Source: an uncultured Verrucomicrobiota bacterium (GTDB taxonomy: Bacteria; Verrucomicrobiota; Verrucomicrobiia; Opitutales; UBA9783). From it: a stretch of 64,000 bases of DNA. Every line of letters starts with the position of its first letter. Within the stretch, counting starts at the first letter, position 1. Made by a program: the position numbers and the translations under genes. Below, piece after piece: positions 49,929 through 51,446 of the stretch. Location of the stretch: NCBI GenBank assembly GCA_946186275.1, contig CAMHMO010000004.1, forward strand, positions 20,616-84,615, in the 5' to 3' direction. Under the pieces are notes generated by a model. It made no database searches. It saw nothing but the letters and a program-made list of their open reading frames with translations, and was not told the origin of the DNA.

Positions 49929-51446
49929 ATGAAAATAAAACGTGTTATTCTGGAAAATTTTCGCGGTTATCGCGAAAAAACGGCGATTGACTTTAACGAT
50001 TTGACGGTTCTTGTCGGTCACAACGATGTCGGAAAATCGACCGTGTTGCAAGCGTTGAATTTGTTTTTCAACGAAGGTTCCGACGTTAAGATCGATAAAG
50101 GTGACCTCAACGTCCAAAGCGATACAAAGGAATGTACGGTAACCGTTGTTTTTTCGGATTTGCCGGAAAAAGTTGTTTTGGACGATTCCTCCGAAACAGC
50201 GTTGTCGGAAGAGTATCTGTTGAATAAAGACGGAGATTTGGAAGTGGTGAAAACATTCGGCGGCATTAAATCAAAAATCTGCATTCGGGCATGGCATCCG
50301 ACCTGTCCCGAGTGTTGCGATTTGTTGCAAAAGAAACAGAATGAGTTGCAGGAGATTATAAAAAAATCGGGTATTTTGTGCGAAGACATGAAATCGAATC
50401 CCGTGATGCGAAAGGCGATTTGGGCACACTTTGGAGAAGACCGTTTGCAATGCAAAGAAACGGATATTTCCGTTGATAAAGAAGACGTAAAAGCCGTATG
50501 GGAGAAATTGCAGTCTTTTTTGCCGGTTTATTCGCTTTTTGAGGCGGATCGGGAAAATACCGACGGAGATGACGCGGTGCAGGATCCGATGAAAAGTGCC
50601 GCCAGGCAATTTTTGAAAAACGAAGAAGTGCGTAAGCAACTGGATGAAATTGCGAGGAACGTATGCGACCGGTTGCAAAGCGTTGCCGATCGCACGGTGA
50701 AAGCGTTAGAGGAAATGGATCCGAAAGTCGCCAAAGGGTTGAAGCCGGTGATTCCGTCGGTCGATAAGCTGAAATGGGAGGATGTGTTTAAAAATGTTTC
50801 CGTTGCCGGCGAGGATGGTGTTCCGCTCAACAAACGCGGAAGCGGTGTAAGACGCCTGGTTTTGATCAGTTTTTTCAAAGCGGAAGCGGAACGTCGGCAA
50901 CGGAATAAAAACACGGGAGTTATCTACGCAATCGAAGAGCCGGAAACGTCGCAACACCATGCAAATCAGCTGATTTTGGCGAAAGCTTTGAAAAAACTTT
51001 CGGAAGCACCCGATACACAGGTTGTTTTGACGACGCACGGCAACACAATGGTGAAGGCATTGGGCGATACGGAAAATGTTCGATTGATTTCGGATAAAGA
51101 AGACGGAACCAAAACCGTGGAGACGGTTTCGGACGGTTTGCTGGGTTATCCTTCGCTGAACGAAATCAACTATACGGCATTCGGTGCGATAACCGAGGAG
51201 TATCACGACGAGCTTTGGGGGTATCTGGTGGAAAAAGATCTTTTGCCGGAATACGAAGAAGGTAAGGAAACAAAACCTTACGAACGTATGAAAAAAGGAA
51301 AAGTAGTAACCGAACAAAAGACGCTTTCGCATTACATTCGCGATCGAATTCATCATCCGGAGAATAAACGTAATGAATTTACGGACGAAGAGTTGAAACA
51401 ATCCGTTGAGAAGATGCGCGAATTTATCAAGGCGCATCGCGTTTAA
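49929..51446 (+). CDS. ABC/OLD-like (AAA_15/21-type) ATPase lacking Toprim, with a C-terminal Rx4H (HEPN-like) motif
   Basis: 505 aa from the ATG at 49929 (SD AAGGAG). The N-terminus reads MKIKRVILENFRGYRE...LVGHNDVGKST (Walker A). It has KRGSGVRRLVLISFF (signature-like), VIYAIEEPETSQHH (Walker B/D-loop) and LTTHG (H-loop). The C-terminal 110 aa contain TLSHYIRDRIHHPENK. Confidence 0.75.
   Translation: MKIKRVILENFRGYREKTAIDFNDLTVLVGHNDVGKSTVLQALNLFFNEGSDVKIDKGDLNVQSDTKECTVTVVFSDLPEKVVLDDSSETALSEEYLLNKDGDLEVVKTFGGIKSKICIRAWHPTCPECCDLLQKKQNELQEIIKKSGILCEDMKSNPVMRKAIWAHFGEDRLQCKETDISVDKEDVKAVWEKLQSFLPVYSLFEADRENTDGDDAVQDPMKSAARQFLKNEEVRKQLDEIARNVCDRLQSVADRTVKALEEMDPKVAKGLKPVIPSVDKLKWEDVFKNVSVAGEDGVPLNKRGSGVRRLVLISFFKAEAERRQRNKNTGVIYAIEEPETSQHHANQLILAKALKKLSEAPDTQVVLTTHGNTMVKALGDTENVRLISDKEDGTKTVETVSDGLLGYPSLNEINYTAFGAITEEYHDELWGYLVEKDLLPEYEEGKETKPYERMKKGKVVTEQKTLSHYIRDRIHHPENKRNEFTDEELKQSVEKMREFIKAHRV

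Follow-up and report, generated by a model that had tools for sequence, protein, structure and literature searches.

The combination of an ABC ATPase with a nuclease is among the commonest plans of prokaryotic immunity, and it is represented by OLD, Gabija, PARIS, Septu, PrrC and RloC. The trigger in P2 Old, PARIS, Gabija and Septu is sensed by the ATPase and its insert, which control the nuclease via changes of the oligomeric state. OLD-type ATPases pair with Toprim, HNH, REase and PIN effectors (PMC12839542), and recent surveys place HEPN domains only with PrrC and RloC (PMC12839542; bioRxiv 10.64898/2026.07.10.737580). In this study, we analyzed a gene of an uncultured Verrucomicrobiota bacterium that encodes an OLD-type ATPase joined to a C-terminal domain with an R-x4-H motif. 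The gene is located in a stretch of 64,000 nucleotides (nt), hereafter called the window (contig CAMHMO010000004.1 of NCBI GenBank assembly GCA_946186275.1, positions 20,616 to 84,615).

Several of the described systems act on RNA. P2 Old is an abortive tRNase controlled by its oligomeric state (bioRxiv 10.64898/2026.07.10.737580), and PARIS cleaves tRNA. PARIS and Gabija are often associated with restriction-modification (R-M) or BREX systems and are triggered by anti-restriction proteins. In PrrC and RloC, an ABC ATPase is followed by a C-terminal HEPN anticodon nuclease (PMC2610378; PMC3710099), and their triad has the form Arg-x3-Glu-x36-52-His (PMC2610378). RloC is widespread in bacteria, is occasionally linked to type I R-M genes and is thought to interact with R-M enzymes in trans (PMC2610378).

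The N-terminal part of the window protein is an ATPase of the OLD clade. Residues 1-375 were aligned with positions 1-374 of the 374-position Pfam AAA_15 profile (E=8.3e-79; 266 bits, with a cutoff of 32.1), and the module includes an inserted helical region of the dimerization type. Its motifs are listed in Table 1; scored in 63 homologs, the key residues G30, K36, R303-G306, E336-E339 and H370 were invariant. The best matches in PDB profile searches were OLD (6p74), followed by GajA and PtuA. A Foldseek search with the full-length AlphaFold2 (AF2) model, whose pLDDT score (predicted value of the local distance difference test) was 84, returned TsOLD 6p74 (E=4.7e-13), then GajA, PtuA and the OLD protein of retron Eco8. 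PADLOC gave matches to generic ATPase models only (AriA, 373 positions, E=1.3e-68; Old; GajA), all of them ending by residue 402. There were also weak matches to RecF, Rad50 and SMC_N at the N-terminus (Pfam, NCBIfam). At E up to 1, AAA_13, the ATPase type of PrrC and RloC, was not among the Pfam matches, and neither Toprim nor any other nuclease family was matched in the 505-residue protein. An initial annotation, made from the sequence alone, had described an OLD/GajA/PtuA/AriA-type ATPase with the full motif set that lacks both Toprim and a partner nuclease. AAA_15, PADLOC, the PDB profiles and Foldseek agree on the former, and the latter is borne out by the Pfam search, by the solitary position of the gene in the window and by 79 loci from other genomes, which have no conserved partner gene.

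Two further features of this module were observed. C129 and C151, in the ATPase insert (window positions 50293-50381), are invariant in the family and not in the OLD-Toprim sister proteins described below; with the nearby H123, which is at least 90% conserved, they might form a metal site or a disulfide. An acidic loop, D207-P220 (50547-50588), has invariant D207, R208, N210, D212, D214, Q218, D219 and P220; it is common to the sister proteins, and its AF2 pLDDT is below 50.

The relationship to OLD proteins ends at a sharp boundary. The nearest plasmid-encoded proteins were 38-42% identical to the window protein, and the alignment was confined to residues 1-405. Three of these sister proteins were inspected; they are products of solitary genes and are 608-647 residues long, and two of the three scanned had an OLD-like_TOPRIM match at approximately residues 423-528. 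The ATPase motifs and the acidic loop, F-x-[AS]-D-R-x-[ST]-x-D-[SG]-D, are common to all, and the sequences diverge totally past approximately residue 400. Since the match to the nearest relatives stops at about residue 405, past which they have Toprim, the protein is, as judged from these alignments, a Class 1-like OLD ATPase in which the Toprim effector has been replaced by an unrelated domain of about 100 residues.

The replacing domain, residues 403-505, was modeled by AF2 with a pLDDT of 91 alone and of 89-97 within the full-length model. The predicted order is a helix (410-418), a second helix (423-435), a short helix (439-443), a beta-hairpin (448-465), a helix (466-475), a loop and a final helix (486-504). 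The motif helix 466-475 contains R471 through H475, and HPEN is in the loop that follows, ahead of helix 486-504. The initial annotation had noted an R-x4-H in the last ~110 residues, RDRIHHPENKRN, and had tied its reading to conservation of the Arg and His. The motif was confirmed, and its conservation is strict. In 82 cluster representatives with full domain coverage, which are 30-57% identical to the window domain, R471, H476 and L429 were 100% conserved; H475, P477, E478, N479, N482 and S492 were 98-99% conserved, E412 was 96% conserved, and H426 and E428 were 94% conserved each. Position 472 was H in 42, N in 35 and D in 5 of these sequences and nothing else. Among the 40 most diverse sequences (A8), the sole invariant polar residues were R471 and H476, in the exact R-x4-H arrangement.

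The longer motif R-x3-HHPEN was found in all of the best 120 homologs and, in exact form, in 134 of the 150 listed representatives of 50%-identity clusters. The representatives without it were mostly truncated, frame-shifted or chimeric calls, and the intact variants (RNKIDHPEN, RHQIHYPEN, RNYMHHSNT) keep the R and at least one H. Upstream, E424, H426 and E428 are located in helix 423-435.

These properties suggest a comparison with HEPN RNases, as the initial annotation had proposed. In the definition of this superfamily, the residue after R is mostly N, D or H, a conserved acidic residue is located in helix 2, and inserts between helices 2 and 3 are frequent (PMC3710099). The AF2 topology plausibly fits each of these points if the short helix 439-443 and the hairpin 448-465 are taken as the insert. 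What stood of the proposed HEPN-like tail is the motif and, plausibly, the predicted placement of helices; what did not is a match to a HEPN family or structure. Structure prediction for the C-terminal domain yielded a confident model, but there was no HEPN entry among its 50 listed Foldseek matches in PDB or in BFVD.

Several observations weigh against a HEPN-like RNase. Pfam searches with 27 domain sequences at E up to 10 produced no consistent family, the scattered sub-threshold matches including AbiTii in 2 and RnlA_toxin in 1 of the 27 members. PDB profile searches with the domain gave chance matches only (ArcMAP2, E=0.04-0.1, and coiled coils), and the best Foldseek matches of the domain model in PDB and BFVD had E=0.09-0.35 and TM scores of at most 0.24, with no HEPN entry among the 50 matches listed per library. 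An hhalign comparison with Escherichia coli RnlA, the one HEPN profile compared, had a probability of 0.3%. At 9-19 residues the core helices are short, the acidic residue in helix 2 does not have its usual E-x3-[KR] form, and the domain is mildly acidic (median isoelectric point 5.9, net charge -3). The conserved H475, E478, N479, N482, H426 and E428 are outside the HEPN definition and could point to a different, possibly metal-dependent chemistry. Finally, there is no family-specific model in PADLOC v2, nor is there an NCBIfam model for the family (best match 32 bits, with a cutoff of 860). Membership of this domain in the HEPN superfamily is thus plausible but unproven.

Part of this evidence could be accommodated by an alternative, which we consider rather unlikely: that the protein is a defense ATPase whose tail is a new, non-HEPN hydrolase fold, in which H426, E428, H475, H476, E478, N479 and N482 cluster, perhaps as a metal site, and which cuts DNA or RNA or hydrolyzes a nucleotide. 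It would explain why neither HEPN nor any other known fold was recovered despite a model with a pLDDT of 91, and why seven more polar residues besides the R and H are 94-99% conserved. A beta-hairpin followed by a helix ahead of the motif is also in its favor, as is the variety of nucleases that pair with OLD-clade ATPases (Toprim, HNH, REase, PIN; PMC12839542). On the other hand, strict invariance among polar residues is limited to R471 and H476, which are spaced exactly as R-x4-H and have H, N or D after the R, and the predicted helix order fits HEPN. The hairpin strands are nearly devoid of conserved residues, which argues against HNH or His-Me fingers. An HNH/His-Me finger, suggested by the hairpin and helix, was considered separately and rejected, there being no conserved His or Asn in the strands. 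A HEPN-like RNase remains the best single reading of the tail, though it is not established.

Relatives of the protein are numerous. A word-indexed search detected 6,232, the best 120 of which are 503-532 residues long, mostly 50-57% identical to the query and aligned over 98-100% of it. With one genome taken per species, 591 of 599 pattern matches were confirmed, so that at least 591 species genomes have a relative. The hosts include clostridia, Bacteroidota, Gamma- and Epsilonproteobacteria, Desulfobacterota and Bifidobacterium, as well as spirochaetes, Dehalococcoidia, Elusimicrobia, a Chlamydiales metagenome-assembled genome and Candidatus Altarchaeum. The distribution is patchy and takes in one archaeon besides most bacterial phyla. 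When 1.84 billion cluster representatives were searched with a profile of the C-terminal domain, 803 proteins (50%-identity clusters) were detected; of the 150 that were listed, nearly all are full-length (~450-560 residues) or fragmentary proteins with the domain at the C-terminus. Three proteins with the domain elsewhere or with extra N-terminal sequence (P0183, P0148, P0149) were set aside as likely chimeric or mis-assembled metagenome calls. Full-length members are rare in mobile elements, with 1 in 50,697 phage records and 4 in 2.9 million viral contigs, and a plasmid search found none.

Source annotations describe these proteins only as 'ATP-binding protein' or 'predicted ATP-dependent endonuclease of OLD family', and the initial annotation's candidate single-gene defense nuclease gained no support from PADLOC beyond the generic ATPase matches. 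We found no published description of the architecture, Krishnan et al. 2020 and the HEPN groups 'ERFG_01251' and 'APECO1_4465' being outside this comparison. Because the distinctive domain has no Pfam, NCBIfam or PADLOC model, the family is uncounted in defense-system censuses.

Genomic neighborhoods were examined in the 79 loci from other genomes; family members occur, for example, in Blautia producta DSM 2950 (L012), Moraxella sp. ATCC 23246 (L024), Pasteurella testudinis (L027) and Campylobacter (L072). The largest cluster of neighboring proteins was present in 11 loci. Neighbor families, read from the 25 most frequent Pfam families per side, included HsdS (9), N6_Mtase, HsdM_N, HSDR_N (9+2), ResIII, and type II restriction enzymes and methylases, and further BrxL, GmrSD, Schlafen-AlbA_2, TnsD/TniQ, integrases and transposases. 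These neighbors are typical of defense islands and mobile DNA. Type I R-M genes were located within three genes in 17 of the 79 loci. In five (L019, L035, L056, L064, L072) it is the next gene after hsdS, at a distance of 2-35 nt, and in L035, L064 and L072 hsdR comes next within 2-5 nt, resulting in the order hsdS-X-hsdR, in which the gaps are 2-11 nt. In the EcoprrI locus, prrC is arranged in the same way (PMC3710099; PMC2610378). The initial annotation had likened the protein to PrrC; the likeness is retained in the hsdS-X-hsdR order of some genomes, but it does not extend to the ATPase, which is not AAA_13. Taking these data together, we consider a function in defense or conflict likely.

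It is less certain, though still probable in our view, that the C-terminal tail is the effector. The tail could instead be a non-catalytic module that senses or docks a phage protein, a nucleic acid or the R-M complex, the killing nuclease being supplied in trans. The overall acidity of the domain would suit such a role. Some members are within hsdMSR operons and so have a partner nearby, RloC has been proposed to interact with R-M enzymes in trans (PMC2610378), and the ATPases AriA and PtuA each work with a nuclease that is a protein of its own. Yet no conserved partner was present in the 79 loci, most of which have no type I R-M genes within three genes; the domain occupies the exact place of the Toprim effector in sister proteins; and a strictly invariant Arg/His pair is characteristic of catalytic sites and not of sensor surfaces, which evolve rapidly. 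We therefore regard a sensor or docking role as unlikely and keep to the tail as the candidate effector.

The history of the gene could be followed in two related metagenome contigs. From gyrA through the uvrD-like gene, L084 matches the window in gene order. Amino acid identity to L084 was 76% for the ATPase, 86-94% for housekeeping neighbors and 58-63% for two downstream unknown proteins. With a ratio of nonsynonymous to synonymous substitution rates (dN/dS) of 0.25 relative to this syntenic ortholog, the ATPase gene is under purifying selection over this comparison. The second contig, L085, gave a different picture: a sharp, gene-sized tract that covers just the ATPase gene is 97-100% identical to it (Table 1), its flanks are 63-80% identical at the nucleotide level, and the ATPase open reading frame (ORF) is 96.8% identical. 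Synonymous divergence (dS) was 0.022 in the ATPase gene and 0.35-0.78 in flanking genes. The sharply bounded tract, together with low dS in the gene versus diverged flanks, indicates that the ATPase gene alone was recently exchanged between diverged relatives. If the gene is a defense gene, the bounded tract means that a chromosomal defense gene can be replaced allele for allele between such relatives.

Within the tract, there were 41 nonsynonymous and 7 synonymous differences from L085 (dN/dS ~1.6, not significantly different from 1; p=0.29), and ~17 of the substitutions are derived on the window lineage. These values are compatible with diversifying selection or with recently relaxed constraint, the latter of which would count against a functional immune protein here. 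It would agree with the notion that the window copy is decaying or functionally relaxed and was kept by chance at a conserved chromosomal site, as would the lack of an R-M or other defense partner adjoining it. We find this improbable: the ORF is intact, no family-invariant residue has been lost from the window allele, the longer comparison gives a dN/dS of 0.25, the nonsynonymous excess is not significant, and most of the changes swap charges on the surface, as one would expect of an immune protein. That the gene serves housekeeping, in the repair of DNA or the handling of chromosomes as RecF or Rad50 do, is suggested by the weak N-terminal RecF, Rad50 and SMC_N matches and by the position among gyrA, tgt, ldhA, ahpC and a uvrD-like gene with synteny kept in a related species, but it is very improbable given the patchy distribution across phyla, the neighborhoods elsewhere dominated by R-M, other defense or mobile-element genes, the OLD nucleases as closest relatives, the faster evolution of the gene than of its neighbors (76% versus 86-94% amino acid identity) and its recent exchange alone.

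HEPN active sites are normally completed across a dimer, and the activity expected of HEPN endoRNases is metal-independent and leaves a 2',3'-cyclic phosphate. In the model that we infer, which extends to the defense function, the RNase chemistry, the target, the trigger and activation by dimerization, the window protein would be a self-contained ABC ATPase of the OLD clade that acts against phages or mobile elements. By analogy with OLD, GajA, AriA and PtuA, the ATPase and its inserted dimerization region would act as sensor and conformational switch. R471-x4-H476, with H, N or D at position 472 and with H426 and E428, would form a HEPN-like, probably metal-independent, endoribonuclease site. 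The protein may be kept inactive as an oligomer until it is activated by a cue from the phage, for example an anti-restriction protein, aberrant nucleic acid or lost R-M function. An ATP- or trigger-driven rearrangement of the oligomer would then pair two tails and lead to cleavage of RNA, with tRNA as the likeliest target, and cleavage would stop translation and abort the infection. Members between hsdS and hsdR would probably guard the type I R-M enzyme as PrrC does, and the solitary window gene would act alone or in trans.

Taken as a whole, the HEPN-type RNase mechanism is tentative, falling a little short of probable in our estimate. A broader proposal is more speculative and, in our view, less likely than not: that the family is a very widespread, unnamed one-protein immune system, of which the window protein would be the founding example, with a minimal, unrecognized RNase tail (either a new HEPN family or a convergent HHPEN-x2-N fold), which has independently recreated the strategy of PrrC, guards type I R-M enzymes where it is embedded among their genes, is autonomous elsewhere and probably cuts tRNA. 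Should the tail be an RNase, OLD-type sensors would have recruited a HEPN-like effector independently of PrrC and RloC, in a compact, one-gene system of 505 residues with two obvious candidate catalytic residues. It would also be a second, independent suicide RNase nested between hsdS and hsdR, which bears on the guarding of R-M enzymes as a general principle.

Features of the gene and its immediate surroundings are collected in Table 1. The start codon is the ATG at 49929 and not an upstream GTG at 49797, as the homologs all begin with MKIK or MRIK at the former site. The Shine-Dalgarno sequence is the same in L085 and is AAAGAG in L084. As initially annotated, the gene is located downstream of tRNA-Leu(CAA) and a (TTCC)7 tract and is convergent with the next gene, which encodes a 710-residue protein (51458-53590, minus strand) and ends 12 nt past the stop codon of the ATPase gene. 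The window neighbors are housekeeping genes (gyrB, gyrA, tgt, ldhA, ahpC and a uvrD-like gene). No nuclease or partner gene adjoins the ATPase gene in the 64-kb window, and no R-M genes were found near it. Promoter and terminator scans at the locus gave results no better than shuffled sequence.

Table 1. Positions of the gene, its motifs and adjoining features in the window
Feature	Position	Strand	Basis or remark
ABC ATPase + R-x4-H domain gene	49929..51446	+	complete, 505 codons plus stop
Shine-Dalgarno AAGGAG	49918..49923	+	read from sequence; 5 nt before ATG
ABC ATPase module, residues 1-400	49929..51128	+	AAA_15, Foldseek, sister-protein alignment
Walker A GHNDVGKST, residues 30-38	50016..50042	+	G30, G35, K36 invariant
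ABC signature-type KRGSG (within NKRGSG), residues 302-306	50832..50846	+	K302 R303 G304 S305 G306 invariant
Walker B + D-loop IYAIEEPE, residues 332-339	50922..50945	+	Y333-E339 invariant
H-loop TTH, residues 368-370	51030..51038	+	H370 invariant
C-terminal domain, residues 403-505, candidate effector	51135..51443	+	AF2 models, domain profile
EYHDE, residues 424-428, second helix; candidate accessory acidic/His residues	51198..51212	+	H426, E428 each 94%
RDRIHHPENKRN, residues 471-482, R-x4-H motif	51339..51374	+	conservation across family
tRNA-Leu(CAA)	49561..49647	+	ARAGORN; upstream of ATPase gene; identical in two related genomes
(TTCC)7.5 tract	49710..49739	+	Tandem Repeats Finder (TRF), 100% matches; ~190 nt before ATG
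Recombination tract	~49850..51380		97-100% nucleotide identity to L085 ~370-1900 (sliding identity)

The tRNA-Leu(CAA) gene marks the onset of a stretch of lower guanine plus cytosine (GC) content (43-46% versus 50-57% elsewhere in the composition profile). Neither an integrase nor a repeated tRNA 3' end was found around the ATPase gene in the window. We considered but rejected an integrated island delimited by a repeated tRNA 3' end, as neither the repeat nor an integrase was found and the locus is syntenic in a related species. Phase variation via the (TTCC)n tract was also rejected, as its copy number is the same in three diverged genomes and thus offers no hint of such variation. Both this (TTCC)7 tract and the TTTTTCGGTTATTTTTTAAAG that follows it are kept, with equal repeat number, in the window, L084 and L085 (alignment A7), genomes whose coding flanks have diverged by dS 0.35-0.88, and such stability is unusual for a tetranucleotide microsatellite. 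This suggests a constrained element rather than a phase-variation switch.

Other genes of the window were observed to be variable or unusual. The 710-residue protein and a 297-residue protein (53734-54627, minus strand) are of low complexity and have no Pfam or PADLOC match; both are syntenic in L084 and L085 and fast-evolving (58-67% amino acid identity, dN/dS 0.31-0.44). Between tgt and ldhA, a 265-residue ORF (47576-48373, minus strand) has no family match and a GC content of ~45%. The same slot in L084 is occupied by different genes, of 304 and 245 residues, the first being only 27% identical, and it is a small variable spot within otherwise conserved synteny. An AhpC/1-Cys peroxiredoxin (55292-56050, plus strand) has an unusual Cys-rich N-terminal extension, CGCGDDCECNCCDCGCCCE, and is 94-95% identical in both related contigs. 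A second ABC-type ATPase gene (60828-62579, plus strand; 583 residues) is located 9 kb downstream, adjoining tRNA-Arg and tRNA-Met genes (62704-62897). Its product matches the PADLOC single-gene defense candidate PDC-S46 (E=2.6e-74) and, below cutoff, Pfam AAA_13; its tail has IRLLAE with a His 53 residues later, which resembles the triad of RloC and PrrC and is just outside the published spacing (PMC2610378).

The family shares features with several known systems and can be distinguished from each of them. Like the Class 1 OLD nucleases (P2 Old; TsOLD 6P74, the best structural match), it is encoded by a solitary gene, belongs to the AAA_15 clade and has the acidic loop; unlike them, it lacks the defining Toprim domain and has the R-x4-H domain and two family-specific invariant Cys in the ATPase insert. 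With PARIS (AriA/AriB) and Gabija (GajA/GajB), it shares an OLD-clade ATPase, which is the infection sensor in those systems. No AriB, DUF4435 Toprim gene, fused Toprim or GajB was found in the window or among the listed neighbor families of the 79 loci; the nearest UvrD-like gene (56325-58724) is 4.9 kb away, past four genes, and is syntenic housekeeping. Membership in PARIS or Gabija was rejected on these grounds, and, having no partner gene, the system is not PARIS, Gabija or Septu.

The C-terminal domain resembles HEPN RNases (HepT, RnlA, Cas13, Csm6, ApeA) in its R-x4-H motif with a polar N, D or H after the R; by the AF2 models, the position of the motif at the end of helix 3 of a four-helix core, the acidic residue in helix 2 and the insert between helices 2 and 3 would plausibly be further likenesses. 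It differs from them in having very short helices, no similarity in sequence or fold that could be detected to a known HEPN family, and an invariant HHPEN-x2-N signature not known from other families. RloC is similar in combining an ABC ATPase with a C-terminal RNase (putative in the window protein), in its only occasional linkage to type I R-M genes and in its wide distribution, but the window protein lacks an insert of the Rad50-like coiled-coil or zinc-hook kind and is unlike RloC in its ATPase clade and its candidate catalytic motif. The Arg-x3-Glu of the PrrC/RloC triad is also absent 36-52 residues upstream of H475/H476, residues 423-439 containing no Arg. PrrC itself differs in its AAA_13 ATPase, that of the family being of the OLD/AAA_15 clade, and most family members, including that in the window, have no R-M linkage. 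As there is no AAA_13 match, the window protein is, by its sequence, an analog of PrrC and not its relative, and in several genomes the family gene is situated between hsdS and hsdR, as is prrC in the EcoprrI locus.

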